A stretch of 62,854 nt of DNA from a virus (lineage: Duplodnaviria; Caudoviricetes): the IMG/VR virus record IMGVR_UViG_3300044634_002660, positions 1 to 62,854 of that record. One strand, given 5' to 3'. The translations under genes and the position numbers were made by a program. This document shows positions 4,610-53,711 of the stretch, one piece after another. Positions within the stretch are counted from its first letter, which is position 1, and each line of letters opens with the position of its first letter. Under the pieces are notes generated by a model, which was not told the DNA's origin, made no database searches, and saw only the letters and a list, made by a program, of their open reading frames with translations.

Positions 4610-4631
4610 AGTAGAACCATTTTACCATGAT

Positions 4632-27250: not shown

Positions 27251-27271
27251 ACACATATTGGAGTGTATAGA

Positions 27272-32102: not shown

Positions 32103-32681
32103 ATGGCAGTTAATGTCTCAAATATCGTAGTCGGTGAGGCTACAATCAAGCTTGGCGATTCCGCCAACGCAACAACAATTTCCGCAATGGATGGCTTTGC
32201 TGATCTTGGCGCTACACAAAATGGCGTTGAAATCTCATGGGAGCCAGACATGGTTGATATTGAAATCGACCAGTATGGCGATGCAGCAAGAATCGTTCAG
32301 TCGAAGGTGAAGGTTATGGTTAAGACAACTATGGCTGAAGCAACATTGAACAACCTTGCAATTGCATGGAACTATGACCAGAATACTGGTGGTTCTTCAA
32401 TCATTGCAAACAATGACGGTGCAAGCACCACAACCTTTAAGTTCGGCGCACAGTCTGTGTTCCCATACGAAAAGGGTCTTGTTGTTCAAGGTACCGCTCC
32501 TGGCTCAGCAGCTGGTTCAATTAAGACAAGAAAGTTCTACACCAAGAGAGCAATCTCGATGGAGGCATCAAATGTCACCATGAAGAGAGCAGAGGCATCG
32601 GTGTTCGCCGTTGGTTTCCGCATTCTTCCAAAGACAGAAGACACTGGTTACGAGTACGGCAAGATCATCGATCAGGCATAA
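32103..32681 (+). CDS. Major tail (tube) protein
   Basis: NIVVGEA, DLGATQNGV, DQ, TTMAEATLNNL, YGKIID; AGGAGG RBS. Confidence 0.85.
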   Translation: MAVNVSNIVVGEATIKLGDSANATTISAMDGFADLGATQNGVEISWEPDMVDIEIDQYGDAARIVQSKVKVMVKTTMAEATLNNLAIAWNYDQNTGGSSIIANNDGASTTTFKFGAQSVFPYEKGLVVQGTAPGSAAGSIKTRKFYTKRAISMEASNVTMKRAEASVFAVGFRILPKTEDTGYEYGKIIDQA

Positions 32682-32786: not shown

Positions 32787-33092
32787 ATGGCAACTGATAA
32801 AAACAAAGATCTTTTCTTGGGAACAGAGATTATTTTCGCTGATGGAAAGAAGAGAACGATTAGACCTTTGACAATTCGTAACTTAAGAAAGTTTATGAAG
32901 ATTGTAAAGGATCTTAAGACTGAGGATAATCTCAATGATGACGACATCGATGTGATGGTTGAAGCAGCTTCAATTGCACTTCTCGCTGTTGATCCAGAGT
33001 TAGCAGAAGATAAAGATAAGTTGGAAGACGCTCTTGACCTTCGTTGTTTCGGTGAGCTTATGGCCGCCGCAATGGGTTCAGACCCTTCCTAA
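32787..33092 (+). CDS. Tail assembly chaperone (G-like)
   Basis: Lies between the major tail and tape measure genes; IRPLTIRNLRKFM; ends GAC CCT TCC TAA. Confidence 0.8.
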   Translation: MATDKNKDLFLGTEIIFADGKKRTIRPLTIRNLRKFMKIVKDLKTEDNLNDDDIDVMVEAASIALLAVDPELAEDKDKLEDALDLRCFGELMAAAMGSDPS

Positions 33093-39400: not shown

Positions 39401-42400
39401 TCTTGGTGCAAGAAACCAAATTTATGGAATGGTTCCAAAAGAGATTAAAGGTAATGTAATAAGTGGTAAAGCAACTGCTGAGCAAGTTACTGGTCTTGTT
39501 GAGGCTTTAAATCTTTACAATGTTTCAAAAGAAGAACTTCTTAAACTTGATGCAAGAACATTGAGAAAGATTGCTGAAAAGATGAAACTTGAAGGTAGAG
39601 CAAAGGCAAGTGAAGATGTTCTTGCCGGTCTTATCCATAATGCAATATTTAATCTTGATAAAGAAACAATTAAGGCAATTGATCTTGTTGCTCTTATGCC
39701 TGTTGTTGAAGCAGGAGCAACTGTCAAGACTGCTGGCAAAACTGTTCCAAAACCAGCTGCTCAGAAGAAAGTTAAAGAAGCGGTTATTAAACTTGAGGAT
39801 ACTGTTGAGGAAGTGATTGTGACAACTGAGCAGGTCATTGAGACAACGGCAAAAACAGTTGATGCTGTATTCGTCAAAATACAGAAGTCTATTCCAGTCG
39901 CTGTTCGCGTTGGGCAATCCGTCTTAGACCGTAGGGCTACAGGAATCGGAAGCGGTTGGAAGGCATCTGACGATCCAGTTTCTCCACCAATTGCTCCGAA
40001 CTTACCACGCACTCCGGGGCCATTCCCTCCACCAAGATTTGGCTACGGAGGAACAGATTCTCAAGATAAATTCCTTCTTAGCCTTGTTAAAATCATAGAT
40101 GCTTCTGTTTCTGCTGGTAAAGCAGTTGGTTCTCTATACCTGTCGGTCATGAGGGCTGGAACAATGATGCTTCCATTTGGCAAGACTGTATGGAACATTG
40201 GTTCAGGATTCGTTTCCTTAACACAAAGCGCAATTGCTCTTTATAAGAGCTCTAAGGAGGCTGGAACGGGTCTTCAGGGCGTTGGGAAGACTCTTAAAGA
40301 GATTGCGAAAGCAAAGATATTTGGTGGAACATATACAAATGCACAAGGTAAGCAAGTCGAATCAGCTGGTGTTCTTGGTCGATTGAGCGGAACTGCTGGT
40401 TCGATAAAGCAAGCATTCTCTGGTGCAGCAGGTAGTGGTATTCAAGGTCTCATCAATACGGCAACAATGGGTATGGGGCAATTTGGATTTGTTGCTGGCA
40501 ATGTTCTTCAGAACCTGACTTCTGCACTCCAAACAATCCCGTATGTTGGAGGTCCAGTAGTTGGCATTCTTGGTGCAATTGCTGGCTCAATTTATCTTCT
40601 CATTAAGTCATCAACCATTTGGAAAGGAACAAACGAAGAAGCCTTTAAAAACTTTAAAGATGCTTGGCAAAATATTAAAGACATCTTGTCTGCAATCGCA
40701 GGCCCGTTTGAAGACTTCATCGGAACGCTTCTTGGAGCTCCAGAGGCTGGTGCAAACGCAACTGATTCGGCAAAAAGCAAGCTCCTTGCATTCTCAAATT
40801 TCATTCTCAACCTTTCTAATAGAATTGAATCTTTTGTAAAAGACTACATTGTTCCAGCAATTAGAAGATCACTAGAAATTGTTGTTTATATATTTAATGC
40901 AATTAAACCATTTGCCTCAGCAACTGTTGGATTGGTTGTTGCAATCTTTAATCAGATAACAAATAGACAAGCAAATATGGTTAAAAAAGCAGGAGATCTT
41001 TTCAAGCAAGGAACTCAAGAAGCAAGCGCTGGAAACTTTAGAATGGTTGATAATGCAATCAGAAATGTTAAAAGTGTTGAAGATGCTTGGGCAACATTTA
41101 AAAATTCTTTTAAAAATGTTTGGGAAGCAATTACTAATATTGTTCAATATTATTTATCAATAATTTATCTTAGAGCATATATGTTCTTAAATCTTGCAAT
41201 GGCAGAGATTCTTCAATCATTGGTTAGTCTTTTCTTTGAAGCCGGTCAGCAAATGGGTGAGGCTATTCAGAATGGTATGTTTTCAAAAATCAAAGGACCA
41301 CTTAAAGTTCTTAGCTATCTTAGCCCAGTAGCTAGAGGATTAGGCCCTCTAGGCTCCCTTATAGGGATGGCAAGTAGTGGTGCTCAAGGAGTATCCAATA
41401 ATTTCTTTGATAAGACACAAACAGATATCACAAGTAAGTTTAATAAGATGATTAAAGCCATTGAAAGCAGCGGTCAAGGTAAAGCAGCTTTTGATAAACT
41501 TCTTAATTCCTTAATGCCAAAAGGCGCTGGAAGTGGACTGTTCAAGTCGTTTAGAGATTTACTTACTAAAGTATTTAAAGACCCAACTGCTGCAAATGCT
41601 GCTGCTGACAATTTCAAGGATGCTGTAAATAGTGCTTTATCAAACCTTAAGCAAACCTTCTTTAATGCCGCATTAAGCGGTTTAAGCGATGCTGTTTCAA
41701 AAATCAAGAGTGAAGTCTCCGATATTCTTGAGACTCAAAAAGAAGAGTACCTTAAGGCTTATGATGATCAAATTGCTGCTATTGACGCAATGGTTGAGGC
41801 TGAGCAAAGACTTACCGCAACAGAAGAATATGAAGCTGACAAGAGACAGAGAATCAAGGATAGAGAACTTCAAAGACAGAACTATCAGAAGAATCGTACT
41901 TTGGCAATCTATGAGGGAAGAATTGATGATGCACGACAACTTGACCTTGAAGAGCAAAAAAACATTTCAGATTTCAATAAAGAAAATGCCGATGCAGAAA
42001 CTGCAAGGAATAGAGATCTTCAAGGTAACGCAAGAGCAGATGCAAAAGCAGTTATTGAAAAGCAAAGGTTGGAGGCTTCTAAATTATTTGATCAGGCAAT
42101 TAAGGATTTCAACGAGTATGTCGAAACTGTCGGTAAGAATGGAACATTAACAGAAGCTCAATTAACAGAGCAATGGAAAAAAATCTCTGAAGAAGCAGAA
42201 AAAACCTCAAAGGGATTGTATGACACATTCAAAACTTCATTTGAAGCTCTTCCGGGAGCAATATCCGCTGTTACCAATTCTGCTGGTGGTCTATTTAACA
42301 TTCCATACGACAAATTAATTGAAGAAACAAAGAAGCAATTTGGTATTGGAAATGAAAATGCAGACTCAATACTTGGCTTAACAAGATCGATGCTCACAGG

Positions 42401-45400
42401 TCAGGGTTCTGCAATATCCAGTGCTTTCGACACAAGTGGTCCAATTACAAAATCTTATTCTGAAGGTCTTGAGAAGTTAAAGACTTATATTGCAACTAAA
42501 AATTCTGGAGAGGGAGAGGATAGCCTTAAGGGCATCTTCAAGAAGATTATTGCTGACGCTAACGAAGCAGCAAGGCAAGAAGTTCTCAAGGGGCAGACTG
42601 GTATTGGAAGTGCATTTGACCAGTTGGTTGGGAAAATGGATGCATCTCTTAGAAAGCTTGCGATAAAGGATATTGTCGCAGCTCAACTTAAAGAAGCGAT
42701 TGATCTTGTTAATAATACGACAATCCCTGCTCCTCGAATTCAAAACAGAACCGATGCAAGTGGTAATAGTGGATTTGGCGCTGGTGGACAGAGAGTGCCA
42801 GCAGGCAGTAATCAACCAACTCCCGGATTTGATCCTAGGTCAGTGTTTGGTCTTACAAGTGGTCAAGACACTACATCACAGGGTCAGTGGTGGTCAAGAT
42901 TTAGACTGAATAACAAATCTCCTTGGAATGCTTGGAATAAATTTGCAGCAGACAAACTTCCTATGTATCAGAACTTCCAGTTAAAGAATCCACAAAGATG
43001 GGAACTTAAGTTCCTTCCAAAGTCGATTGCTGTTGATCCTAATACAGTTATTGGTGGCACAAACTTCGGCCCAGTTCGTTTTAATGGTGGAGCTATCCCG
43101 TATGGAAATGGTGGTCCAACAGAAGGTCCAATGCATCAAGGCATCCCCGCAATCCTTCATGGCGGTGAGTATGTTGTTCGGAAGTCTGCTGTTGATAAGT
43201 ATGGCACCGGAATGCTTCAAAAAATCAACCAAGGAACATTTGGGAAGAAAGGCGGTTTCTTTACTGGTGGAAGAGTTCGTGGAAGCAGCTTGGATGTTCC
43301 TGGTCTTAATATGGGAACAGATCCTAAATTTAATACAACAAGAGATGTAATTCGTAAACAATATACTAGTTTTTATGAAGGACTAGAGAAATTGGCCCCT
43401 AGTAGAGATAGAGCTCTTTATGAATGGCAAGTTTCAATGGGTGGTCTTAATTACAATTATATGAGAGAGATTTGGAGAAAAGAATCAAAAGATTGGGCTA
43501 ATAAAGGTGAATACGCTGGTGGTGGTCTTGGGATTGAATATGACAACTGGAAAAAATGGGGAGGTTTGGAATTCTCAGATTTCCCATATAATGCAAATCC
43601 ATATCAACAAATGGCTGTTTATAACAGAATGTTTGCTCTTGGTTATAAAGGAAAATATGGCGTAAAAGAAAAAGCCTTTAGTGCGGCTCAAAGAATTAAA
43701 GATACTTATGGTGGTAAATTGGCTGCTTTCCATTTTGGTTCAAAACAACTTTATGACAATGATGCATTTGTAAATAAAAATACTCCATCAAATAAAGATA
43801 AAACAAACAACTCTATTATTGTTTCTGAAAAGGATGGCATTGGGTACACACCAACAGGTAGTGCCGGATTCCGCAACTTCATTCCAATCTCTAGATTGAG
43901 AGATAGAAGAGGTAAAAGATTTGTAGACGCAAGATCTTCTTCCTACAAGCCATTCTCTTTGTTTAATGGTGGTTCAATGCCTCAATTCAAAAAGGGAGGC
44001 CCAGTCCGTTTAAGTTGTGGTATTTGTGGAAAAGGGTTTGCAAACGGAGGTCTGTTAAGAGCTCATCAACACACAGGTCATTTCAATGGTGGTTTGCTAC
44101 CAAGTTATAAAGTTGGTGGAACTGTAAAACCTGCTGCAGTAACTTTAGATGAATCGATTTATGGTCCAGAGCCAACAATTGATGAAAAAATGATTAAATA
44201 CATTTCTTGGTATAATAAAGACACAACGCCATATGATGCTCTATTCGATGTAAGACTAGGCGTTTCTGAGAGAACCGATCTTGGTCTTGTTAAAGGTATG
44301 GGAGATATTGGAACTTTAAGTAAATTCTATGAGAATGAAAAATATCCAAAAGGAACTATTGGTATTGGAAATATTTCCGATAAGAAAAATAAATACAATC
44401 GTGCAATCCTTACTTTAAAGAAAAACGCTCCTAAAAATGCAATTGATTATTTTAAAAAACTTATTTATTCTGAAATACAACGAGCAAAGAAAGTTCAAAA
44501 ATATCAAGAATACTATTTATCACAAGAAGAGAAATTTGCTTCTGATTATGCGCCATCTCCAAGTAAAGCTTTTGTAAACATACGAGGATTTGACTTCCAA
44601 CCTTATGAATATGACTGGCAAACAACAAGTATTGAGATGATGGCGAATCAACTTAAACAAGGAAACCTTAATAAAATTAAACCATTGAAAGCTTTTTATC
44701 AAAATTGGGATTCTAGTAAAGTTAAAAAGATTATTGGTATTGATCCTATAAAAGAAGGGTTCTATACAGCAATGAATTCCGTCTCCAAAGTAATAGGATT
44801 TGATGATTTTTCTATTGCTGATTCAAAAAATGCATTTCAAGATGCTAGAAAATATTTTAATAATAATAAAAATGTATTGGCTTTAAATGCACAGCCTTTT
44901 CCTCCTGGAGAACTTCCTGAAGGAAGTACTATAGGAGGAAGAGCTTCTGTATTCATGCCAGAAAAAATTGGAGGATCATCGTCTATATCAGCAATAGATT
45001 ATAATCCTAAAGTACTTGATTACTACCTAGATCACTATAAGAGAGGGGATATTGATAAATCTACTCTCAAGATACAACAACATATGAAACCTGATGCTTG
45101 GAAGAGAATATTTCTTCATGAATTTGGTCATTCTATTAATCTAGGTCACCTTGATGAAGGCTACAGGTCATACAGAAGCGGAGAAGAATTACCAAAAGGC
45201 TTTAGTTCACCATTTGATAGAAATGAATCCATTATGTCTTATGCATATGTAAATCAAGATGATACCCCCGCAAGATTTGGTATTGGAGACATTGCATATA
45301 TTCAAAGACTGCAAGATATTATTTTTAAAGGTAAAAAGCCAAAAACCCCAAAGGCAACGGTTCCATCAACAACGACAACTACTCCATCAAGACCTACTAC

Positions 45401-48400
45401 TACAACGACAACTCCTTCAAGACCTACAACAACGACAACTGTTCCATCAAAACCTACTACGACTACAACTGTTCCAAAGGCTCCTACTACAACTGTTCCT
45501 CCAAAAACGACTACAACAACTGTTCCACCTACAACGACAACAGTTCCTACTGTTCCTTGTCCTACAATCCCTGGTGTAACACCAATACCTAATCCAACAA
45601 TACCAAATCCTGGTACTACAACAACTATTCCTAAAATACCTGGGGTTACTCTTCCTAATGGCACAACAACAACATCAATTCCTGGTATTGACAATACAAA
45701 ATGTAAAGTAATACCAATTAGAGTTTGGGATAACGATAAAAATCCAGGATTTACAGAGGATAGTTTTGCTGGAATGACTTGGCCAATGGCAAGAGATTCT
45801 CAATCTGGATGGAGAAAATGGTTTAGAGAAAGAAAAACTATTGGATCAAAATGGACTTACTGGAAAGTTGTAAATCCTAAAGAAAAGGCAAAGCTTGCAA
45901 AGAAGCAAGTTAAGAATCCTGAGCTTATTGAGAGTATTCAATATCCGGTTCCTCATGACCCAAATGCTTGGCAGATGGAGAAAGACAAATACCCAGAAAG
46001 ACAACCCAGTAGGGGAGGAAGTAAATCCGGGAAAAATGGCAGAACATGGCGTATTAAATGGGTAAAAACTTGTGAGACTACTCCACCAACAGGAACAACA
46101 TCGTCAACATCAACTACAACAACCATGCCAAATGGAGTTCCATCAACATCTGTTCCTGGAGTTACGACATCTACAACACCAATAAGACCAATACCTAACC
46201 CAACAATACCTCAGCCCTGTTTCCCTCCAGAAATTTATCCAACAGGGTTAAAAGTTCCACAATCTAGAATTGTTGCTATTTATGACAAAGATCCAACATC
46301 AAGATTTGTTGGTGGAATTATGCCATATGCAAATGGAGGTCCAACGGTAGGACCAATGCATAAAGGTATTCCTGCCATTCTTCATGGTGGTGAATATGTT
46401 GTAAGAAAGAGTGCGGTTGACAAATATGGCACCAACATGCTTCAGAATATTAATCAGGGCACATTTGGTAAAAAAGGCGGTTACTTTAAAGGTGGTCTTA
46501 TTCCATCAGGGCTTGAGGTATCTTCCGATAAGAAAAATCTGTCCAGATTGGGATCTCTTAAAATCCCAAGACTTCAACTTAACAGTCCTGTATACGAAGG
46601 TGTAAATGAGGATACATTGAATGCTGGTCTTGGACATCAACCGGGTACACCATTTGGATGGTTGGGTAATACCGTTATTGGTGGACATCGCACTAAAGGC
46701 AATAGCCTATTTAGAAATATTACAAAAATGATTAAAGGCGATAAAATTAATTTAACTAGAGGTAATTCTAGTTATGAATACGAAACCGCTTATTCAAGAA
46801 TTTTAAAACCAAATCAAGTTCAAGAATTAATGGGACAACCTCAAGGTCAAGTTAGTGGTTATAATTCAATATTAAGCCTCTTCTCATGCCATCCTCTTGG
46901 TTCAACAAAACTTAGATACATTCTTATTGCTAAATTAAAAAAGGCTTTTGATGGTAGAAAGGTTTCTAGATACAAGATTGGTGGAGTTGTAAAGGGAGGC
47001 AAGAAATCAAATCCTGCCGGAAATCCACCTCCTCCATACAAGACATGGGAAGAGTATTTTGCTGCAGAGGGACCACTAACGCCATATCAAAAATCTATTA
47101 TGATTCCTAATAGGAATAATAGTAGTAACCTTCAACCTTACGATAAGAAATGGCGCGCTGAAATAAAAAGAAAAAATGAGGCTTTTGATAAAAGTTTTAT
47201 TAATAGATTTGTCAAACCTGTTAGTGAGATTTTTGGTCCTATGGCTGCTATCAAGTTCGGCGCAGAAACAATTACTGGTAAAGACCTAGATGCCGCTGCT
47301 GGTTCTAATAAAAAACAAAACCGTCTTGGTTCTGCTGCCAACACCATTTTGTCGTTAATACCCTCAAAGGTTGTAACAAAACCACTTGGAAAGATTGCAT
47401 CAAAAACTGGTATTTCTGGAATTGCTTCTAGAGTTATTGGAAAGGGTTCTGGTTTAATTGGTAATCAACTTAAAGGTTTCAAATCAAAATTTGCATCAAT
47501 GTTTAAGGGTCTAAAATCTTCAAAGGCAGCGAATAGTGGTGTGATTGAAGATCAAATACCAACACACTGGGGAGCAATTACTCAAGGATTAAAGGAAGGG
47601 GTTATTCCAACAAATAAACAAGCAGTTGATGCTATGCTTGCAAGGCAAGCACTTGAATTATTTGATGAATTAGATTATTTAGTAACTGGTCAAATAAAAG
47701 GTAGTGTCAATAGCCTTGATAAAGCTCGATTCTTAGATCAGTTAATTCTTGATGCAATAAATGATGTCCCTACAACTGCCACTAAAGATTTGAGCGTAGA
47801 AGACAGACTTTTTGGTATAGCTAAAAGTCTTGCTAATCTTTTAAACCCAAAAAAGGGATTAAGCGCTCTTGACCCAAGAATTCTTCCAAAATCAAAAGAA
47901 TTAATTGAATATCAACAATTTGTAAAAGATTTTAATGGAATGCTATTGCGTGAAGTGGAGTTAAGATCTTCAGCTTGGAATAAAGCAAATCCAAATGCAA
48001 CCCGTGAAGAACAAAGTGTAGCATATAAAGATATTCTCGATAACTGGTATGATAAAAATAAAATTCCAGATACTCCACTTTCAACAAATGATATTGCTCC
48101 TAATACAACTAAAAAAATTAAAACACCTAATAAATCTAAAAAAAATAATATCTTTAACCCTTTTAAAAATATCTCACCAAAAAATAAAAAATTTAATGGT
48201 GGAGCTATTCCATACTTTGATGGTGGTAGTACATACGGATCAGAGAGCCAAGGAATTCCTGCAATTCTTCATGGTGGTGAATATGTAATTCGTAAATCTT
48301 CTGTTAATAAATATGGAACAAATATGCTTCAAAATATCAATCAGGGTATTTACAAGAAAGCTGGTCAGTATAAGATTGGTGGATATGTTGATGGAATTAA

Positions 48401-48659
48401 TGTTCCTTCAATCCCTAAGTTCTCAACCCCGATGGCAAACTATGCAAAGATCTCTGCACCAAATGTGTCAACTGGTACAATGCAGTCAGAGTCCACTCAT
48501 AACTATAACTTCTTTGTCGACAACTTTATCGGAGAGACTGAATGGTTTAACTCAATGATGAAAGAATACAATATGAAAGTTGTCCCTGCTAACCAAAAGC
48601 AAGCCGGTCTTGAATCAAGGATTGTTAGAACATATAATGGTATAAACAGAGGAATGTAA
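33453..48659 (+). CDS. Giant tape measure protein (5068 aa) with a C-terminal cargo-domain cassette
   Basis: Follows the chaperones; N-terminal tape-measure core (GNRLSMGLTLPL, GASANSVKVSLQRL, LFGVRQ); long helical region; C-terminal repeats and enzyme domains. Confidence 0.92.
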   Translation: MAERNGRVEITAEIDQRLQSALSQMSSSLRSTIEVTNAVNRSTDLTKSTMRGLSQALSVTSGSTNEYNRSVTEAVKNQAILASHFGKTKEAIASLNKIMANSRGTNVTSQDIAVQRAFINQLQSQLGIQKELQKYSNTQSLMAQSNALNSLATKYSYAGNRLSMGLTLPLVGFFRTAFSNYRRLEIETVRTTKLLGDSYTDAGAQVKTLGKELDAISLKYGVARDLVQGLAGDYAELGITDIKALSGLTDLTAATEKLGNVDITEASNFIKSIYQTVNRVKRDEAARAGRAISFKDPAEEALFYADSIAQVRGQLAMFNLLENKTSLALQDIAKAFPELTAASTSFGLSMTEASALIIPMVASGFQVGASANSVKVSLQRLVAMTKKNQEAIKELKLTQADFNFEAGVGIETIQKLSDGYESLKRTRGDEGALRFFSDLFGVRQGPRMEVALQNLSQFQSQISKAGTIEDQLTTQLENYVRQRAGQAGLGEKYSKMELTKYSDLSKVIRLSQNADKEVASAFTSARADFGNYLVSESKRGQDLLGKVTTETGRALFAAASGGGKGSQAEATFNLELEKALDTADRRYKTSRESIKALGREMVPVFDSILKVVVPLLEKFAKFVGGIPSGFKAFLTIGGLVLAMLGPIMKIRGAFAQLHSSVLSFKASGGIFKNLKSSIHPISAELLASSDAFLRFKNKLTQVGNQFFFKGTIKELKQMEKLIAAQSSGRTRVSDRLEKKLKLKETADYSGLYEETSNQLKNVFDESLDGYLKPYSGIKPDITGTIIDGRVVGLEMGNAFVSVLTSLGFDPRAFTRVASTAGSATTTTTPAGDVVVVPPNIKRTGSRTPPPDDDGPDGPPSGGSPAGGSPTGGAPAGGGAAQRGPRVRNAMSGLEQVWGALQGTMDFVNSATKSQLQDFAKSLNITKVSGFTVKSPKLKVAQLRRAIIEAISAPSQVIAKAAEEIQTTVEQVKETVNNNAPPAKDTSKTKKASAKATENVAEAQADVDTTAVVEQGKEDEKTAKETKPKTGRKPTVKKKSEEAVDNTAEAQSTADAATVVEQGKEDKKVVEQTKPKTGRKAPVKKASDKAVDNVAAEQAKADAKAAEQQGKADAAVVRSGPRTIKARLKRKPFLKVDKNLEGTIGAFSHLTSTINEMVANAQQVKKVSVEEAIAKLNLGIKGSKKLRFTPKDFTRLAELMGVILPQAFYEIQEFTNKAGKPLQIQADSLQNIINAIAKIVPASESLPELAGKKVLKIEQDLNRAFIALEKQGGTKAFNIGNIVGTLRHTLNEAINMMIPKENLKEGVVVPLEELTYSDLGTGGRRSRGRKVKAKPLDYDSYVDSAIQFTKTSTGTEFWRKLRKNLQLRTGKSLFEKSMTEESLNQSYGPATGEVTEGNVRVARALSFGRAKSRGARALFRREIDFASSLDKLTEEAYNAHRAKIEKGIADARARMEVIKKMFSAGMDTDPDKTKLFSIDELKAALADFEREMREANLNEDINEVIEKLKGQSEIISKNRNRPGKLVSGEDAIFDISKRLDENLAKAEASLKAEWGDAAPEGARKSAIRAAFRQTASDLQYAYMEQLALFQKQVTKETPEVARNLAIADENVEIARGKLKDVKGLKVGSEEGKEYFKGRKKADVVKGLEKELSLLEEQRHAIKLQHDELVRRNQAEQENIRNLEKVRDAQLAILQSRRVDIGLQPITISGPAIEDTSPSSSERAEAYWKSRSESMSKALNQEDADKRAPDAISTTVVNAITQVSQEILDAEQVVKAARERLDELIGLRTDISMSEPGKPFAEKAQARVKEAVKNLKVKAANIDKEIVKQEKTLEEAKTELAKVSERSRAGGGGRTGSVNLGMPMAGGFGDPMSTDLSPRGGRRSPLDMMTPRNIMSMIPSGGDLTPDLSGVIETLFKQISQAIGAPAEVMAGVLKDIDDRAKRVSTIVNTSLDQFDNELVNKLITQIQGLLGDSELTVENIYNAILGARNQIYGMVPKEIKGNVISGKATAEQVTGLVEALNLYNVSKEELLKLDARTLRKIAEKMKLEGRAKASEDVLAGLIHNAIFNLDKETIKAIDLVALMPVVEAGATVKTAGKTVPKPAAQKKVKEAVIKLEDTVEEVIVTTEQVIETTAKTVDAVFVKIQKSIPVAVRVGQSVLDRRATGIGSGWKASDDPVSPPIAPNLPRTPGPFPPPRFGYGGTDSQDKFLLSLVKIIDASVSAGKAVGSLYLSVMRAGTMMLPFGKTVWNIGSGFVSLTQSAIALYKSSKEAGTGLQGVGKTLKEIAKAKIFGGTYTNAQGKQVESAGVLGRLSGTAGSIKQAFSGAAGSGIQGLINTATMGMGQFGFVAGNVLQNLTSALQTIPYVGGPVVGILGAIAGSIYLLIKSSTIWKGTNEEAFKNFKDAWQNIKDILSAIAGPFEDFIGTLLGAPEAGANATDSAKSKLLAFSNFILNLSNRIESFVKDYIVPAIRRSLEIVVYIFNAIKPFASATVGLVVAIFNQITNRQANMVKKAGDLFKQGTQEASAGNFRMVDNAIRNVKSVEDAWATFKNSFKNVWEAITNIVQYYLSIIYLRAYMFLNLAMAEILQSLVSLFFEAGQQMGEAIQNGMFSKIKGPLKVLSYLSPVARGLGPLGSLIGMASSGAQGVSNNFFDKTQTDITSKFNKMIKAIESSGQGKAAFDKLLNSLMPKGAGSGLFKSFRDLLTKVFKDPTAANAAADNFKDAVNSALSNLKQTFFNAALSGLSDAVSKIKSEVSDILETQKEEYLKAYDDQIAAIDAMVEAEQRLTATEEYEADKRQRIKDRELQRQNYQKNRTLAIYEGRIDDARQLDLEEQKNISDFNKENADAETARNRDLQGNARADAKAVIEKQRLEASKLFDQAIKDFNEYVETVGKNGTLTEAQLTEQWKKISEEAEKTSKGLYDTFKTSFEALPGAISAVTNSAGGLFNIPYDKLIEETKKQFGIGNENADSILGLTRSMLTGQGSAISSAFDTSGPITKSYSEGLEKLKTYIATKNSGEGEDSLKGIFKKIIADANEAARQEVLKGQTGIGSAFDQLVGKMDASLRKLAIKDIVAAQLKEAIDLVNNTTIPAPRIQNRTDASGNSGFGAGGQRVPAGSNQPTPGFDPRSVFGLTSGQDTTSQGQWWSRFRLNNKSPWNAWNKFAADKLPMYQNFQLKNPQRWELKFLPKSIAVDPNTVIGGTNFGPVRFNGGAIPYGNGGPTEGPMHQGIPAILHGGEYVVRKSAVDKYGTGMLQKINQGTFGKKGGFFTGGRVRGSSLDVPGLNMGTDPKFNTTRDVIRKQYTSFYEGLEKLAPSRDRALYEWQVSMGGLNYNYMREIWRKESKDWANKGEYAGGGLGIEYDNWKKWGGLEFSDFPYNANPYQQMAVYNRMFALGYKGKYGVKEKAFSAAQRIKDTYGGKLAAFHFGSKQLYDNDAFVNKNTPSNKDKTNNSIIVSEKDGIGYTPTGSAGFRNFIPISRLRDRRGKRFVDARSSSYKPFSLFNGGSMPQFKKGGPVRLSCGICGKGFANGGLLRAHQHTGHFNGGLLPSYKVGGTVKPAAVTLDESIYGPEPTIDEKMIKYISWYNKDTTPYDALFDVRLGVSERTDLGLVKGMGDIGTLSKFYENEKYPKGTIGIGNISDKKNKYNRAILTLKKNAPKNAIDYFKKLIYSEIQRAKKVQKYQEYYLSQEEKFASDYAPSPSKAFVNIRGFDFQPYEYDWQTTSIEMMANQLKQGNLNKIKPLKAFYQNWDSSKVKKIIGIDPIKEGFYTAMNSVSKVIGFDDFSIADSKNAFQDARKYFNNNKNVLALNAQPFPPGELPEGSTIGGRASVFMPEKIGGSSSISAIDYNPKVLDYYLDHYKRGDIDKSTLKIQQHMKPDAWKRIFLHEFGHSINLGHLDEGYRSYRSGEELPKGFSSPFDRNESIMSYAYVNQDDTPARFGIGDIAYIQRLQDIIFKGKKPKTPKATVPSTTTTTPSRPTTTTTTPSRPTTTTTVPSKPTTTTTVPKAPTTTVPPKTTTTTVPPTTTTVPTVPCPTIPGVTPIPNPTIPNPGTTTTIPKIPGVTLPNGTTTTSIPGIDNTKCKVIPIRVWDNDKNPGFTEDSFAGMTWPMARDSQSGWRKWFRERKTIGSKWTYWKVVNPKEKAKLAKKQVKNPELIESIQYPVPHDPNAWQMEKDKYPERQPSRGGSKSGKNGRTWRIKWVKTCETTPPTGTTSSTSTTTTMPNGVPSTSVPGVTTSTTPIRPIPNPTIPQPCFPPEIYPTGLKVPQSRIVAIYDKDPTSRFVGGIMPYANGGPTVGPMHKGIPAILHGGEYVVRKSAVDKYGTNMLQNINQGTFGKKGGYFKGGLIPSGLEVSSDKKNLSRLGSLKIPRLQLNSPVYEGVNEDTLNAGLGHQPGTPFGWLGNTVIGGHRTKGNSLFRNITKMIKGDKINLTRGNSSYEYETAYSRILKPNQVQELMGQPQGQVSGYNSILSLFSCHPLGSTKLRYILIAKLKKAFDGRKVSRYKIGGVVKGGKKSNPAGNPPPPYKTWEEYFAAEGPLTPYQKSIMIPNRNNSSNLQPYDKKWRAEIKRKNEAFDKSFINRFVKPVSEIFGPMAAIKFGAETITGKDLDAAAGSNKKQNRLGSAANTILSLIPSKVVTKPLGKIASKTGISGIASRVIGKGSGLIGNQLKGFKSKFASMFKGLKSSKAANSGVIEDQIPTHWGAITQGLKEGVIPTNKQAVDAMLARQALELFDELDYLVTGQIKGSVNSLDKARFLDQLILDAINDVPTTATKDLSVEDRLFGIAKSLANLLNPKKGLSALDPRILPKSKELIEYQQFVKDFNGMLLREVELRSSAWNKANPNATREEQSVAYKDILDNWYDKNKIPDTPLSTNDIAPNTTKKIKTPNKSKKNNIFNPFKNISPKNKKFNGGAIPYFDGGSTYGSESQGIPAILHGGEYVIRKSSVNKYGTNMLQNINQGIYKKAGQYKIGGYVDGINVPSIPKFSTPMANYAKISAPNVSTGTMQSESTHNYNFFVDNFIGETEWFNSMMKEYNMKVVPANQKQAGLESRIVRTYNGINRGM
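36417..36800 (+). repeat. ~47-aa (141-bp) tandem repeat inside the tape measure gene
   Basis: About 2.7 copies of KK..AVDN.AEAQ...VVEQGKED...TKPKTGRK. Confidence 0.8.
43080..43271 (+). repeat. 64-aa module, copy 1
   Basis: FNGGAIPYGNGGPTEGPMHQGIPAILHGGEYVVRKSAVDKYGTGMLQKINQGTFGKKGGFFTGG. Confidence 0.9.
46305..46496 (+). repeat. 64-aa module, copy 2
   Basis: FVGGIMPYANGGPTVGPMHKGIPAILHGGEYVVRKSAVDKYGTNMLQNINQGTFGKKGGYFKGG. Confidence 0.9.
48192..48383 (+). repeat. 64-aa module, copy 3
   Basis: FNGGAIPYFDGGSTYGSESQGIPAILHGGEYVIRKSSVNKYGTNMLQNINQGIYKKAGQYKIGG. Confidence 0.9.
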
Positions 48660-49057
48660 TGTCAATAATAAGTTTTTTATCATTAAACGGAACAGAGGTT
48701 ACAGAGCAGGGCAGAACAATATCTGACTCTGTAAAAGTCGGGGCATCCGAGGTTGAACTTGATGCTGGAATAACAAAGAGATATATTAAAACGAATAAAA
48801 GAACATTTTCTTTTAAATGGGAATGGCTTCCAACAATCAAAGAAGACACCATTGATAATAGAGAAGCCCGAAACTGGCTTAAGAACTTAGCTCTAACAAC
48901 ACGGGGCAAGGTTCTTATGAATATTCAGTTAAGCCCGGTTGATGCCTCAGAGTCTTTCTATGTTTACATTACTGATTACTCAGAGGATCTTATTAGAAGA
49001 GATGTACAGAGAGCGTGTGACTATTATTCAGCGAGTCTTTCGGTTGAGGAAGCCTAA
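48659..49057 (+). CDS. Distal tail / minor tail protein
   Basis: Immediately after the tape measure gene (TAATG); FSFKWEWLP, YSEDLIRRD. Confidence 0.65.
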   Translation: MSIISFLSLNGTEVTEQGRTISDSVKVGASEVELDAGITKRYIKTNKRTFSFKWEWLPTIKEDTIDNREARNWLKNLALTTRGKVLMNIQLSPVDASESFYVYITDYSEDLIRRDVQRACDYYSASLSVEEA

Positions 49058-49821
49058 TGTCAGAAGAAAATCCAATCTATAGGATAAATGATCTTTTAAG
49101 CGGGGTTGTCTTTAATGAAATTCCTCTTATAGTTGAAGCATCTTCGTCATTAACTATTGAAACTGAATTATCAGTAACAACACTTAGAATTACATTTGTA
49201 TCTGAGTCTTTTTCTGGAGATTTAACAGTTAATTCCTCTGCGTTAAGAATACAGTTTGCATCAGCAAATCTTGATGGAATTGCAAACATTACATTAATTA
49301 CACCAGTCAAAACAGTAATTTTGGGATTAACAAATCTTCCAATTAATAGTAATCTTTTAATTTCTGACTTAATACGTTTTACCCCATCTTCAAGATATCC
49401 GGGATCACTTGTTCCTCTTGTTATTCTTGACAACAATGCTTTAACAGATCAAGGTCGTAAATTTAGTGACAGCATAAAGCAAGTCTTTGTTGAGAAATCA
49501 AATTGGAATAATTCTAAGTCTAGATATTATAAAAGAAATAATGCTGGAAAGATAACATTCAAAATGTCATGGGAATGGCTTCCCTCAACCAGAGACTCCA
49601 CTATTGATAAAAGAGAAGCTAGAGACTATATTAAGAAATTAGCTATGGATCCTGATGTTCATGTCTTAAAGGTTGTTACATATGGAGCGGATCCTGAAGA
49701 TATTTTCTCTGAAACAGCGTATAATGTATTTATAACTTCTTACTCAGAAGATCTTGTCCGTAGAGATTTGACTTCTGATGTTTATTTTTGGAAGTGCGAT
49801 TTGGAATTAGAGGAGGTTTAA
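49057..49821 (+). CDS. Minor tail protein, C-terminal half paralogous to the preceding gene
   Basis: TDQGR, WEWLP, TIDKREAR, YSEDLVRRD shared with 48659..49057. Confidence 0.65.
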   Translation: MSEENPIYRINDLLSGVVFNEIPLIVEASSSLTIETELSVTTLRITFVSESFSGDLTVNSSALRIQFASANLDGIANITLITPVKTVILGLTNLPINSNLLISDLIRFTPSSRYPGSLVPLVILDNNALTDQGRKFSDSIKQVFVEKSNWNNSKSRYYKRNNAGKITFKMSWEWLPSTRDSTIDKREARDYIKKLAMDPDVHVLKVVTYGADPEDIFSETAYNVFITSYSEDLVRRDLTSDVYFWKCDLELEEV

Positions 49822-52800
49822 TGATTACACAAGATGTCTATGGGAAACCATTATCCGATTCGTTTCAAACCGCTACCAATTCATACGCTCAAAAGGTAAA
49901 ACCAAAGGTTGTTATCACCTTTCTAGATAGTCGCCATGTAGACAATCTTGTTGTAACGAGTAGTGATTCCTATACATCAAACTCAAGAGGAACACTGGCC
50001 CAGCAAATGGCCGGCACTTCAATGCTTAGCGGTTACTTTTTTACACCTCAGCAATCAATGAATGGAACACAGAGGCAAGGATTTCCTTGGGCTATTGCTG
50101 GAGATATTGACCAGAACGGCAAGACGATATGTGCTGATGGAAACTTTTATGCTATGCCAAGCGACCTTGAAGATAATTATAAGTATGGATGGAGATCAAA
50201 TGCTGTATCAACAGCAACATTGCATTCTGTTTCTGGATATGAATTTACAACACCAATTTGGATAAACTATAGCTTTACTCAAAGAAAAGTTAATAAGGTA
50301 AAGGTTGTAACATCAGAATTTGGTGGTAAAATAAGTTACTATAAACTTGAAATTGCTAACAATGCTTTGTCAACATTTCATACCGTGTTTGCTTCAATTG
50401 GTAAAGATGAATACTATAGAGAGCATATAATTCCATCAAATATATCTACAGATGTTGCTACAATTAAAATAACTATATATAGCACACAGACAAAATCAGA
50501 TCGTGCAAGGCTTATTGAGGTCATTCCTTTATACGAAGTTGATGTAACAGACTATGTTGTAAGCCATTCTGTTCAAAGACAAGGTGAACTTTGGGAGAAT
50601 TCAATTCCAATTGCAGGAAGTGGTTCTTCAAGTGCATCGATTGTATTGGATAATACAACAAAAGATTTTAGCCCATTTGACCCTACATCTTTATATGGAA
50701 AATATATGAAAAAAGATTTGAAAGTTAAACTTTCAAATGGTTGGAGGATTGTAAAAACAGACGATATTTTGGTCAATGCTGTTTTAACTTCTTCCATGAC
50801 AACATCAAGCAATACACTATCTGTTAATGATGCAGCTGGTTTTTTAAATGGCAATGCTACAAACCAATTTACATTAATAGTTGATAAAGGAACTCCTAAT
50901 GAAGAGGTTGTTTTGTGTTCAACAAGAACGGATAAGACAGTAACTATCCTTGACCGAGGCTATGACGGAACCTATGCTGCCAACCATAGCGCTGGTTCTT
51001 CTGTGATTTTTGACCCATACGAATACATTAACTTAGGGGAGTTTTACATAGACGAATGGTCTGGAAGTAGCGGAATGGATCTCACAATAAAATGCTTGGA
51101 CAAAACAAAATTTTTAACTGAAAAGCAAATCACTAAGGGTTTCTATGTTCAGAACTCAACAGTCGGTCAGGCAGTTAAGAATATGCTTATGCAGACAAAT
51201 ATCTCGCAAAATGAATTATCACAACTTGTTCCGTATTCTGATTTCTTGCAACAAAATGCGGTTGCGTCATACTCATTTAAAGAAGATTTGACAGACAAGA
51301 CTGGTACACCAATTGTTCCGGGGACTGGATTGAGAGTCCGGTATTGGCAAATTGCAAGTAACAAACTTAACGAATTAAAAGACATTAAGGCTGACGCTTT
51401 AGACATTCAACTATCTGCATATGACAAAGCAATGAAAGCAAAGAGTTTTGTCCCTCAAAGCAATACACAATTTACAAGTGGCGACTTCGCTGTTGATCTG
51501 CAGAATGTCAAGTTTAGCACAGGACTTGGAACGGCAGAGTCTCCAACCGTTGATGTTAAAGAGTATTTTAACGGTGTCATTGATGGCTACTGGATTCCTG
51601 CAACTGCCGGTAATATGTCTTTTGAAATAGCAGTAACAGAAGGTGGTGTTCGTGCGTACCTTGATGACAATCTTGTTCTTAGTAAATGGACAACAGCAAC
51701 AGGAACTGTTACATCATACGACTATCTTGGTGGATATTTAGATGTTGATGACGGTGTTCCCTATAAACTTAGAATTGAGTTCTTTCATGGTCGTGGTTCT
51801 GAAACATTCGATATCGCCCTGTATACCAAATATGAAAGTTCTTCTGCAACAAAGCTTGCAAGATCACAGACGACAACTGTGGTAGCAGAAGAGTCTATTG
51901 GTAAAAGAAATTCTATCTTTACAAGAGGAGTTAAGAATAGAAATCATTACAGGAATAATGGAATTTATGTAAGTGATCCTGTTCTTAAACAACCATCCGG
52001 TCTGGTTTCAGAACCTTTAAATAAAGCTGTATACCTTGATGGCTCATCTTATATTAGAATACCTTATGATCAATCCTTGAATTTAGCCAACTCATCAAGT
52101 ACAAGTTATACAGATGAATGGTCAATTGAATTATACGCAAAATTTCCTAACACATTTAATAGCGATGGTGAATATTTAAGCAACTGGAGCAATGCTTCTT
52201 CAACATCTGGTTTTGAATTTTTTAATACATCATCAAGTCATGGATTTAAAATTATAAAACATAATGGAACAGTAAAAACTGCTTCATCAAATACAGCTTT
52301 GTCAACAACATCCTATACACATATTGTAGTTACACATAAAGATGGTGATGCTAAATATTATGTAAATGGAGTTCTTGCGGGTAATGTTGATGGTGTTGGA
52401 GCACAAGCTAGTTGGGTTAACGACATAACAATTGGCGGAAGGGGTGCTAGTTTCTCCGCAGGCGCTGAGGTTGCACCATCTACTATTCGTAGTTTTTATA
52501 TTGATGAGTTCGCAATGTATAACAAAGCCCTTACCGCAGAGACTATTAAGGACAGATACATCACGACTCAGATTAAGCCAATAACATCATTCCCTCATCT
52601 TTATGGTAATGACCAAAGTGCAAAACAAATTATTGATGCAATTGCCTTGGGTGATTTTGGAAGATTTTTTGTGGATGAAAATGACAAGTTTCAGTATTAT
52701 CATTACTATAGATTCTTTGAGCCAACTATTACACAGCATTCGGTAAGTCAAAAAACAATATCAGATAGCACTCATATTCAAAGCGGTGAGTATAATGTGC

Positions 52801-53711
52801 AGTTACAAGTAAATAAGATAACAGTTAATGTTACAGATCAATCACCTTTGACATCTGGAAGACAAGGGCTTTGGTCTCCACCTGACAATTCTTCTTTGGG
52901 GGTTGTGACTTTGAAAGGAAATATCAGCTCAACATCAACAACAATCCCTGTTAATACAACAAACAATCCACCATTCCCAACGAGCGGTTATGTGCAGATT
53001 GATAATGAAATTATCAAGTATTCATCTATTGATGACAATAATTTTATCTTGAACACATCGGATGATAGAGCTCAGTTTGATACAACCGCTATAGAGCATT
53101 ATATAAATACACCTGTTAGAGAAGCTCGTTATTATCAGATTAAGTATGATAATGCACCAGCATTTGATGTGTATAAGCCATATGTTAGCGCAATACAGGA
53201 TACTGTTCCACCAAAAATTGTTATGTCAAGATATATAGCAAATGCATACACAGCTGAACTCATATTGTCAGCATCCACATCGGTTGTAAGCGGGAACATT
53301 GCCTATATTCAAGGAACAAATCCTAAAACTGAAGAGCAAGATTTTACATCAATCTCTGGAGTCCCTGTTAAAAAACAAGAAGGAGCTAACCAAATCAAAT
53401 CTCAAAGTGCAACTTTGTCTGAAGACATTAAAAGATACGGTCTTAAAGAAGTTGTTATTGATAATCAATATATCTATACAGCATCTAAGGCACAAGAGAT
53501 TGCTGATTTTTTAATTTCAAAATTTAAAGAACCAATTCCAGTTTTAAATATTACATCAATGGCAATACCAACTCTTCAAATTGGTGATAAAATTACAATA
53601 TCATCGCTAAGAAGTCTTGATATTATCAATACTGATTACTGGGTTGTATCTCACAACCTAAGTGTCGGAGATACGCTAGAGCACTCTATTACATTAAGGA
53701 AGGTTTCGTAA
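49821..53711 (+). CDS. Baseplate hub/central tail protein with PA14-like and LamG-like domains
   Basis: GGAGG-ATG at 49821; LGEFYIDEW; GVRAYLDD..YKLRIEFF (PA14-like); THIVVT..YYVNG..IDEFAMYNKAL (LamG); PTLQIGDKI C-terminus. Confidence 0.75.
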   Translation: MITQDVYGKPLSDSFQTATNSYAQKVKPKVVITFLDSRHVDNLVVTSSDSYTSNSRGTLAQQMAGTSMLSGYFFTPQQSMNGTQRQGFPWAIAGDIDQNGKTICADGNFYAMPSDLEDNYKYGWRSNAVSTATLHSVSGYEFTTPIWINYSFTQRKVNKVKVVTSEFGGKISYYKLEIANNALSTFHTVFASIGKDEYYREHIIPSNISTDVATIKITIYSTQTKSDRARLIEVIPLYEVDVTDYVVSHSVQRQGELWENSIPIAGSGSSSASIVLDNTTKDFSPFDPTSLYGKYMKKDLKVKLSNGWRIVKTDDILVNAVLTSSMTTSSNTLSVNDAAGFLNGNATNQFTLIVDKGTPNEEVVLCSTRTDKTVTILDRGYDGTYAANHSAGSSVIFDPYEYINLGEFYIDEWSGSSGMDLTIKCLDKTKFLTEKQITKGFYVQNSTVGQAVKNMLMQTNISQNELSQLVPYSDFLQQNAVASYSFKEDLTDKTGTPIVPGTGLRVRYWQIASNKLNELKDIKADALDIQLSAYDKAMKAKSFVPQSNTQFTSGDFAVDLQNVKFSTGLGTAESPTVDVKEYFNGVIDGYWIPATAGNMSFEIAVTEGGVRAYLDDNLVLSKWTTATGTVTSYDYLGGYLDVDDGVPYKLRIEFFHGRGSETFDIALYTKYESSSATKLARSQTTTVVAEESIGKRNSIFTRGVKNRNHYRNNGIYVSDPVLKQPSGLVSEPLNKAVYLDGSSYIRIPYDQSLNLANSSSTSYTDEWSIELYAKFPNTFNSDGEYLSNWSNASSTSGFEFFNTSSSHGFKIIKHNGTVKTASSNTALSTTSYTHIVVTHKDGDAKYYVNGVLAGNVDGVGAQASWVNDITIGGRGASFSAGAEVAPSTIRSFYIDEFAMYNKALTAETIKDRYITTQIKPITSFPHLYGNDQSAKQIIDAIALGDFGRFFVDENDKFQYYHYYRFFEPTITQHSVSQKTISDSTHIQSGEYNVQLQVNKITVNVTDQSPLTSGRQGLWSPPDNSSLGVVTLKGNISSTSTTIPVNTTNNPPFPTSGYVQIDNEIIKYSSIDDNNFILNTSDDRAQFDTTAIEHYINTPVREARYYQIKYDNAPAFDVYKPYVSAIQDTVPPKIVMSRYIANAYTAELILSASTSVVSGNIAYIQGTNPKTEEQDFTSISGVPVKKQEGANQIKSQSATLSEDIKRYGLKEVVIDNQYIYTASKAQEIADFLISKFKEPIPVLNITSMAIPTLQIGDKITISSLRSLDIINTDYWVVSHNLSVGDTLEHSITLRKVS

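Follow-up and report, generated by a model that had tools for sequence, protein, structure and literature searches.

What would a sortase, a member of a cysteine transpeptidase family that serves protein sorting signals, be doing inside the tape measure protein (TMP) of a tailed phage? The question is raised by IMGVR_UViG_3300044634_002660, a linear IMG/VR record of 62,854 nucleotides (nt) assigned to the Caudoviricetes (hereafter the window, i.e., the whole stretch of DNA that was analyzed; CheckV completeness ~60%, with ~40% of the genome outside it), in which an initial annotation had described an intact sortase domain fused inside a TMP. Our analysis indicates that this domain, which is part of a protein of 5068 amino acids (aa), is a genuine member of the sortase family (MEROPS C60) with an intact catalytic triad, as judged from homology and predicted fold. 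As the best explanation, to which we assign a probability of roughly 50%, we propose that it would be brought into the wall of an actinobacterial cell and be active there as a transpeptidase or protease.

The peptide quoted in the initial annotation is the frame-1 translation of positions 46548 to 46940. Within it, the Pfam Sortase profile PF04203 was matched over profile positions 1 to 124 of 125 (E 5.3e-23; 81.6 bits against a cut-off of 26.6), and a scan of the whole record placed this match (46557 to 46937) free of stops inside an open frame of 5075 aa. The general NCBIfam model TIGR01076 (sortase_fam) was likewise passed, with 69.8 bits against a cut-off of 39.35. The features of the domain are as follows, the three catalytic codons having been read in the DNA.

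46557..46937, + strand: sortase catalytic domain (PF04203), supported by Pfam, NCBIfam TIGR01076, AlphaFold2, and Foldseek
46686..46688, + strand: codon cat of the catalytic His, His4412 (invariant H63 of the domain)
46887..46889, + strand: codon tgc of the catalytic Cys, Cys4479, in LSLFSCHP (invariant C130)
46914..46916, + strand: codon aga of the catalytic Arg, Arg4488 (invariant R139)

Residues H63, R64, C130, and R139 of the query were invariant across a 64-sequence alignment (A1), which consisted of the query and 63 of the sequences that HMMER matched when 1.84 billion representatives were searched exhaustively. Overall identity to the aligned sortases was 29 to 40%, and the window carried the same residue in 21 of the 22 columns that are uniform in at least 90% of the other 63 sortases, with a T-to-S change as the exception; the TLxTC-type strand reads LSLFSC, with S for T at its first position. 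Pfam match, alignment invariance, and codon reading thus bear out the triad that the initial annotation had placed at 46686, 46887, and 46914. More specifically, two departures from the family were seen: GHQPGT replaces the conserved GHWPGT, with a one-residue deletion, and 7 residues are inserted in the loop before the Cys strand, where the predicted local distance difference test score (pLDDT) falls below 50 at residues 117 to 119.

The structural evidence agrees with the profile matches. An AlphaFold2 model computed on A1 (pLDDT 85.8; predicted template modeling score 0.81) has the predicted eight-stranded β-barrel of the sortase fold, and a Foldseek search of the Protein Data Bank (PDB) with it returned 139 matches at E ≤ 0.001, every listed one of which is a sortase (classes A, C, E, and F), with query-normalized TM-scores of 0.64 to 0.77 and E values down to 7e-13. 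Similarly, phmmer against PDB sequences gave 61 matches at E ≤ 1, and all 60 listed have sortase-type names; the best was 8t28_A, a class C sortase (E 8.8e-13), and the best PDB match of the subfamily profile was 4d70_A (E 3.8e-27). Two of the checks that had been proposed at the outset, the Pfam Sortase hidden Markov model (HMM) and AlphaFold, therefore support a sortase fold.

As to class, the domain scored highest with the class E model NF033747 (75.9 bits; cut-off 160), followed by the class C (pilus) model NF033745 (68.1; cut-off 160), the SrtD model NF058671 (59.3; cut-off 140), the class D model NF033746 (58.0; cut-off 165), and the class GN model (28.1; cut-off 158), all below cut-offs (140 to 165) that are calibrated on whole proteins and so penalize a bare domain. 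Class C sortases have an N-terminal lid with a DP[WFY] motif, and this motif does not occur anywhere in the entire 5068-aa protein. Class E sortases are said, after Kattke et al. in 2016, to achieve LAxTG specificity through a conserved Tyr in the β3/β4 loop. The description of the domain as class D/E-like is, on these scores, a fair label for a predicted affinity; membership proper is not established for any class.

The protein that carries the domain is encoded by one uninterrupted open reading frame (ORF), whose neighborhood is given here because it bears on the identity of the product.

33453..48659, + strand: TMP gene, 5068 aa (PF10145, tblastn to annotated TMPs, synteny with phage Gilson)
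34107..34775, + strand: PhageMin_Tail (PF10145) core of the TMP, aa 219 to 441 (E 2.4e-11; 44.3 bits against a cut-off of 33.2)
32103..32681, + strand: major tail protein of the Ig-domain type, upstream of the TMP (phrog_2175, E 6e-25; phrog_476, major tail protein, E 6e-7)
32787..33092, + strand: probable tail assembly chaperone (by position; phrog_10504, E 5.5e-13, a PHROG of unknown function)
48659..55084, + strand: downstream tail genes, namely a 132-aa ORF, a 254-aa ORF, a 1307-aa minor tail protein, and a 457-aa fiber

Residues 151 to 816 of the product matched annotated TMPs in 70 records of Streptomyces and Gordonia phages by tblastn (~24% identity). The gene order (major tail protein, chaperone-like gene, TMP, minor tail genes) is identical in Streptomyces phage Gilson (Stanwilliamsviridae), in which gene 37 ("protein with Ig domain") occupies the position of the major tail protein of the window, the chaperone genes 38/39 stand just before the TMP gene, from which we assign the probable chaperone at 32787 to 33092, and a 133-aa minor tail protein followed by a large minor tail protein lies downstream, again in the order found in the window. 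The 1307-aa minor tail protein (49788 to 53711) carries PA14 and concanavalin/LamG-like carbohydrate-binding domains, and the 457-aa fiber (53711 to 55084) carries an intramolecular S74 chaperone domain. With the PF10145 core domain, the gene position shared with Gilson, and the conserved C-terminal motif described below, the predicted product of 33453 to 48659 is a TMP, and the sortase lies inside it in frame, as the initial annotation had read it.

The C-terminal part of this TMP has a modular layout into which the sortase is set.

43065..43337, + strand: R1, first copy of the TMP C-terminal motif (..GIPAILHGGEYVVRKSAVDKYG..), end of the conserved N-terminal core
43338..46292, + strand: cassette A, variable payload from R1 to R2, where relatives diverge
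46293..46511, + strand: R2, second motif copy (DNA 77% identical to R1 and 68% to R3)
46512..46958, + strand: sortase insertion, aa 4354 to 4502, without counterpart in the relatives examined
46959..48176, + strand: remainder of cassette B (406 aa), without a match to a family in Pfam, NCBIfam, or PHROG
48177..48656, + strand: R3 and the conserved TMP C-terminus (74 to 89% identical to four relatives; phrog_3547, TMP, E 6e-10)

The motif is ~70 to 90 aa long (..GGPTxGPMHQGIPAILHGGEYVVRKSAVDKYGTxMLQxINQG..) and is present in three copies in each of five giant TMPs, i.e., that of the window and four relatives; here the R3 copy itself occupies 48177 to 48420. Five TMP PHROG profiles (phrog_3547, E 2e-8 with R1, as well as 10030, 23013, 37649, and 24) align in their C-terminal parts with R1 and with the C-terminus of the protein, which indicates that this is the motif with which TMPs usually end, occurring three times here. 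In DNA, identity between the copies is 68 to 77%, with no run of more than 23 identical bases, their conservation being at the protein level. A short linker motif, [FY]x(1-2)GGx[IVLMF], recurs at module boundaries; 13 of its 14 occurrences in the TMP fall within aa 3210 to 4973 (43080 to 48380), and one copy stands to either side of the sortase (YFKGGLI, aa 4344; YKIGGVV, aa 4507).

The four related giant TMPs (4754 to 5350 aa) matched a query from the sortase region only through the flanking repeat (15 to 16% coverage). By blastp, their core is 69 to 81% identical to that of the window (aa 1 to 3400) and their last 153 to 203 aa are 74 to 89% identical; all four have the same three-copy plan with different cassette contents, the sequence between the R copies being unrelated among the phages, and none of the four has a counterpart of aa 4354 to 4502. 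In one of them (P0005), R2 runs straight into the post-sortase segment (query 4503 to 4686 against subject 3954 to 4153, 60% identity), so that the first 184 aa of the post-sortase part of cassette B are common to both proteins, and this junction indicates that the sortase is a clean in-frame insertion of ~150 aa. An Atlas search with the rest of cassette B gave a top score of 0.85, with the PT-TG family at 0.81, which we take as leads only. Through the conserved TMP C-terminus, 65 related IMG/VR loci were recovered, of which 46 include 720 aa or more of TMP before the stop (the sortase lies that far from the stop here) and 26 include 2700 aa or more; a sortase HMM run on all six-frame ORFs of these loci matched none of the 65, the window alone being matched. 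The sortase thus looks like a swappable payload module within a variable C-terminal region that is bounded by three motif copies. TMP size varies among the loci that share the C-terminus: six (L040, L042, L045, L051, L054, and L033) have complete ORFs of 1883 to 1940 aa, and in at least 18 (L003, L012, L017, L025 to L028, L047, and others) the frame is still open after ~3460 aa at the flank edge.

Whether the fusion is real was addressed with Logan contigs, in which the segment 46100 to 47400 is present in 24 rows from 23 coded studies (22 lake water metagenome, 2 metagenome); 15 of the 24 hold at least half of the sampled words, and 7 are flagged as possible sources. Evidence on the junctions was taken from four unflagged runs (X8 to X11) over 45500 to 48000, runs with a word share below 0.5 (X16 to X24) and runs X12 to X15 having been left out. 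In X8, a single contig of 959 nt corresponds to 46095 to 47053 with 0 mismatches and 0 gaps; it spans unique upstream sequence (268 nt before the R2 core), R2, the whole sortase, and 95 nt beyond the insertion. A 526-nt contig of X11 covers 46461 to 46986, a 481-nt contig of X9 covers 46379 to 46859, and three contigs of X10 tile the region. Over these four runs, both junctions were bridged, and no substitutions or indels were reported. Logan contigs tend to end at the R2 core (46363 to 46408), where other sequences branch off; this is the behavior expected of k-mer assemblies at a repeat, and the core is the sole place where chimeras could arise. An apparent backward joint ("goes back 1638") was traced to the resemblance of R3 to R2 and is not a rearrangement.

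Strain variation and base composition point in the same direction. The 90% protein cluster has four members, including the TMP sequence of the window itself, which is seen on 3 contigs, the longest of 107,800 bases. A strain variant (P0003, P0193) differs by 9 substitutions, all within aa 411 to 2621, and has an identical cassette; a truncated copy of 4705 aa likewise has 9 differing positions, and an 844-aa fragment is identical over the cassette. The insertion has a GC content of 0.347 and a GC content at third codon positions (GC3) of 0.195, against 0.344 to 0.358 and 0.19 in its flanks, an equality that makes both a chimera with bacterial DNA and a capture in recent times less likely. The read-support check suggested in the initial annotation was therefore passed, with contigs bridging both junctions and strain variants sharing the cassette, and we regard the in-frame fusion of sortase and TMP as genuine with near certainty.

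Where the domain came from is suggested by its closest relatives. The exhaustive search yielded 6579 matches at E ≤ 1e-3, of which 367 reached E ≤ 1e-10 and none reached E ≤ 1e-30; the top match has 45% identity. The nearest sequences (36 to 45% identical) are proteins of 160 to 225 aa with an N-terminal hydrophobic leader that resembles a signal or anchor when read by eye, and they have the same GNxVIGGHRT and LFSCHP motifs. Neither a signal peptide nor a membrane anchor directly precedes the domain in the window, where 4350 aa of TMP and the R2 motif come before it. When metagenomes were scanned with an alignment of 9 sequences, 163 relatives were confirmed, and 80 loci of 33 to 42% identity were kept. 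In all 80, the domain ends 0 to 3 aa before the stop, the stop-to-stop frames measure 154 to 633 aa, and the contigs have a GC content of 0.50 to 0.75; by this layout, the predicted products are ordinary stand-alone sortases of cells. Several of these loci lie directly upstream of a gene for Lnt (apolipoprotein N-acyltransferase; 3/3 tested), and several hold an ABC-2 permease (3/3 tested). The conserved active-site columns, together with a GC3 that has ameliorated relative to relatives of GC 0.50 to 0.75, indicate long residence under purifying selection. We propose that the domain was captured long ago from a bacterial housekeeping-type, class D/E-like sortase of probably actinobacterial origin. 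Several sortase matches of 435 to 623 aa contain two sortase domains.

The kinship of the phage itself bears on its host. The major capsid protein is 49.7% identical (E 5e-100), and the portal ~45% identical (E ~1e-128), to those of Streptomyces phages of the Gilson group, with genomes of ~128 kb. Sortase and Lnt in high-GC DNA, together with the kinship of capsid, portal, and TMP to Streptomyces phages, fit Actinomycetota, and an actinobacterial host is in our estimate somewhat favored. An Atlas search gave mixed Bacillota and Actinomycetota taxa, and the one tRNA in the window (tRNA-Asn) is uninformative on the host.

In this lineage, a canonical TMP of ~3200 aa ends at R1, and two cassettes come after it, one closed by R2 and the other by R3; directly after R2 stands the sortase of ~150 aa, which has lost the signal peptide or membrane anchor of its cellular relatives. 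From here on the scheme is inferred, as regards virion delivery of the segment, catalysis, substrate, and direction of the reaction, and so is the phylum of the host. In siphophages, the tail tip houses the C-terminus of the TMP, the TMP is the first component to be ejected upon infection, and hydrolases carried on TMPs assist in crossing the wall. Because the C-terminus leaves first, the module, in perhaps ~3 copies per virion, would reach the host cell wall and its interface with the membrane at the start of infection. There, Cys4479, together with His4412 and Arg4488, would attack a sorting-signal-like bond of a host envelope or wall-linked protein, and the acyl-enzyme would be resolved either by water, i.e., by proteolysis of wall-linked or precursor proteins at the entry site, or by an amine of the wall or lipid II, i.e., by covalent tethering. 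As a result, the entry site would be cleared locally, or the ejected TMP would be tethered there. In a tethering variant, a thioacyl link would form with a host sorting-signal protein or a phage tail motif and then be transferred to an amine of peptidoglycan or lipid II; in the reverse variant, wall-anchored proteins would be cut away from the entry site. That the sortase is catalytically active in infection is, in our judgment, an evenly balanced proposition; covalent tethering of the DNA-ejection conduit to the host envelope, or another transpeptidation role, is a tentative suggestion that we consider rather doubtful. The three functions proposed in the initial annotation, namely anchoring of the channel to peptidoglycan, removal of host sorted proteins or pili to block superinfection, and ligation of Gly-Gly fragments of a polyprotein, are speculative, and the blocking of superinfection with ~3 copies per virion appears the least plausible of them.

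Several observations weigh against an active enzyme that works on an actinobacterial wall. A regular-expression search of the window, over all six-frame ORFs of 50 aa or more, returned neither LPxTG nor LAxTG, in agreement with the initial annotation, and in the same ORFs no sorting motif is followed by a hydrophobic and basic C-terminal tail; as the window holds ~60% of the genome, the substrate may lie elsewhere, in the phage or in the host. No sorting-signal protein was found among the neighbors of the 80 cellular sortase loci. Nineteen neighboring ORFs of two types did end in a hydrophobic and basic tail, and the six sampled proved to be ABC-2 permeases (3/3) and Lnt (3/3). Since no class cut-off is reached, specificity cannot be transferred from a known sortase class, and through the loop insertion and GHQPGT, substrate recognition may be altered or lost. 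A folded β-barrel is hard to fit in the lumen of a tail tube. None of the four giant relatives and none of the 65 related loci carries the sortase, which makes it dispensable for such tails. With regard to the host, neither WhiB nor another actinophage marker was found in the 20 small ORFs scanned, and the GC content of the phage (0.34 to 0.41) is far from that of Streptomyces.

The readings that compete with wall delivery of an active enzyme differ in what they make of the catalytic residues and of the module boundaries. The domain could act on the phage's own proteins as a protease or ligase, in cis or in trans, cleaving the TMP polyprotein at its module boundaries or cross-linking the TMP to other tail parts much as class C sortases polymerize pilins, during assembly or after ejection. 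A Gly-Gly amino terminus is a classical sortase nucleophile (SrtA); the recurring [FY]x(1-2)GGx[IVLMF] boundaries of the modular C-terminal extension, which also flank the sortase, would suit such a role, as would the VPGTG and IPATA of the 1307-aa tail protein. All four sortase-less relatives, however, have these R motifs and GG linkers too, so that any processing there would be independent of a sortase; VPGTG and IPATA lie 700 to 793 aa from the stop, and their count equals a rough chance estimate (2 to 3 for the loose pattern over the coding length); and the TMP has no LPxTG or LAxTG, nor was a pilin-type context found. We therefore consider self-processing improbable. We are equally skeptical of a non-catalytic module that binds a wall peptide, lipid II, or a host sorted protein for adhesion or positioning. 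GHQPGT and the loop insertion could signal changed chemistry, and the authors of PhaLP 2.0 (PMC13237592) liken rare sortase domains of predicted lysins to potential CBDs; a mere binder, however, would have been free to lose the His/Cys/Arg triad in the course of a compositional amelioration that is now complete, and here the catalytic and near-invariant residues are kept (21/22 columns).

Two further readings we hold to be very improbable. According to one, the domain is a neutral passenger, i.e., a recent accidental capture, or an assembly chimera made at the repeated R motif. In favor of this are the confinement of the fusion to one lineage and the breaking of De Bruijn contigs at the R2 core (46363 to 46408). 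Yet the X8 contig crosses that core through to the end of the insertion without a mismatch, by which the artifact is refuted, two strain variants share the cassette, and the R copies have no more than 23 identical bases in a row; as for a passenger, GC3 is phage-like, unlike that of the high-GC contigs of cellular sortases, and both the open frame and the conserved residues have been kept. According to the other, the host surface would be remodeled from inside the infected cell by a domain released from late TMP, e.g., so as to exclude other phages, for which only the presence of the enzyme speaks. The domain sits within a structural protein made in the cytoplasm and, unlike its nearest relatives, has neither signal peptide nor anchor, and no convincing internal start was found, with no clear Shine-Dalgarno sequence before the TTG at 46548 as read by eye.

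The remainder of the payload region was also examined, and cassette A holds several weak matches.

43497-43637, + strand: weak transglycosylase/lysozyme/Rpf-like stretch directly after R1 (PF06737, E 4.6e-4, below cut-off)
44016-44081, + strand: single C2H2-like zinc finger, CGICGKGF...HQHTGH (zf-C2H2, E 0.002, below cut-off)
45117-45242, + strand: metzincin-like stretch, HEFGHSINLGH...SIMSY (Reprolysin_5, E 0.053, below cut-off)
about 45400-46290, + strand: Thr/Pro-rich linker of cassette A

The Rpf-like stretch is conserved throughout the five giant TMPs, and a Glu and Trp/Gly positions in it do not vary; its AlphaFold2 model, from a 5-sequence alignment, is unusable (pLDDT 35.8). The zinc-finger stretch matches a designed zinc-finger protein in the PDB (E 3.3e-5). 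HEFGHSINLGH with a SIMSY Met-turn 27 residues later is what we take to be a metzincin-like zinc-protease signature; the stretch had no match in the PDB sequence search. When the last 2000 aa of the TMP ORFs of five relatives were scored, one (L003) had Reprolysin_4 above the Pfam cut-off, and Reprolysin_5 (PF13688) is precomputed for P0005 in the collection.

Elsewhere in the window, a full-length FAD-dependent tryptophan halogenase (27263 to 28735; PF04820, E 2.6e-102) and a protein with a 2-oxoglutarate-Fe(II) oxygenase domain (25614 to 26213) are encoded between the head and tail genes. A 203-aa ORF on the - strand (1263 to 1874) matches the proteasome-subunit family PF00227 (E 6e-6; 26.4 bits against a cut-off of 22.4), an HNH endonuclease gene (55748 to 56188) stands between the tail fiber and the replication genes, and a PHP domain at the right edge (62289 to 62852) may start a DNA polymerase III alpha-like gene.

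To what extent such a fusion has been seen before was assessed in phage collections and in the literature. By tblastn, 11 of 50,697 INPHARED records matched, all unannotated at the match, none with at least 80% query coverage, and with a best identity of 33%; the two that were inspected are UNVERIFIED records with sortases in stand-alone ORFs of 365 and 244 aa. Pattern scans, which detect only matches to a few peptide patterns and from which records of the window's own genome were excluded, gave 38 pattern matches in IMG/VR with the domain alone, 17 in IMG/VR with an alignment (A2), and 365 in JGI metagenomes with the domain alone, and in each case 0 were confirmed. A word-based search among proteins of 2787 to 8869 aa returned only the protein of the window and the four relatives that share just the repeat; among proteins of 271 to 2000 aa, none of 255 candidates scored, which is weak evidence. 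A fold search of BFVD had 0 matches at E ≤ 0.001. PHROG matches were weak (phrog_23668, E 8.6e-5, and phrog_22228, E 0.009, both of unknown function); with 228 and 206 positions, these families are of stand-alone size with no tail context recorded, and such matches suggest that stand-alone sortase-like phage proteins may exist. By title and abstract, no TMP-sortase fusion was found in the literature on sortases, TMPs, and virion-associated enzymes, and no title on the TMPs of freshwater actinophages was relevant; the indexed text of a review of phage barrier-breaching enzymes (PMC6116005) has no occurrence of "sortase". Within the limits of these database and literature searches, all of them agree with the initial annotation, according to which virion proteins are not known to contain a sortase.

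The fusion matters for the following reasons: (i) the envelope enzymes known so far from virions are hydrolases or lyases, and with a sortase in the protein at the head of DNA ejection, phages would have a further means of crossing Gram-positive-type walls, namely transpeptidation at the protein level or cleavage of sorting signals; (ii) if transpeptidation is true, no earlier cell-wall enzyme of virions would have been known to form or exchange peptide bonds rather than hydrolyze the wall; and (iii) the phage would then possess a naturally anchor-free sortase with a possibly new specificity, which, being compositionally unusual and having a modified specificity loop, would be a candidate protein-ligation tool. 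If the domain is inactive, the fusion would be an unusual but harmless domain capture. In either case, the group is widespread in lake water, and its cassette-bearing giant TMPs offer a system in which the acquisition and exchange of enzymatic payloads by tails can be followed.

Compared with known systems, the closest counterparts of the domain itself are the housekeeping sortases of classes E and D (5cuw SrtE1, 5go5, 9iok, 5utt, and 4d70), with which it shares family, triad, and β-barrel at query-normalized TM-scores of 0.72 to 0.77. In contrast to these, it has no anchor, lies ~4350 aa into a structural protein with 566 aa downstream of it, carries the 7-residue insertion before the Cys strand, and reads GHQPGT for GHWPGT. 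Among the best 150 of the 6579 representative matches, one protein exceeds 650 aa (P0097; 1439 aa, metagenomic), and it is not a TMP. Its sortase belongs to the same subfamily (34% identity; E 7e-14) and is likewise joined to a very large non-enzymatic protein, at the extreme C-terminus after ~1280 aa of repeat-rich, surface-protein-like sequence with no known phage context, and its source name, "LPXTG-site transpeptidase (sortase) family protein", marks it as cellular. Among phage-attributed sequences, the authors of PhaLP 2.0 (PMC13237592) list "sortase" among rare miscellaneous domains in predicted metagenomic lysins that "resemble potential CBDs", and suspect annotation or gene-calling artifacts for such domains; those sequences are sortase-like as here, and none of them is a TMP.

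On the side of the carrier, enzyme-bearing TMPs are known, and sortase chemistry in a virion protein was not found reported in the phage collections and literature searched. The TMP of mycobacteriophage TM4 reportedly has an Rpf-like motif (Piuri and Hatfull, 2006), and Pb2 of T5 is said to be a TMP with an embedded cell-wall hydrolase domain (Boulanger, 2008). The nearest cultured comparison is Gilson, with related capsid and portal proteins and the same gene order, whose TMP of 2100 aa likewise bears an envelope enzyme near its C-terminus: a Peptidase_M23 domain (E 9e-26) at aa 1914 to 2010, ~90 aa from the end and directly before its own C-terminal motif. Its position indicates that the slot just upstream of this motif holds a wall-degrading enzyme in a cultured relative. 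The two phages differ in that the TMP of the window is 2.4 times longer (5068 versus 2100 aa) and carries the C-terminal motif in triplicate, with two payload cassettes in place of one, and in that the enzyme carried there is a peptidoglycan hydrolase, whereas here it belongs to a cysteine transpeptidase family for protein sorting signals.

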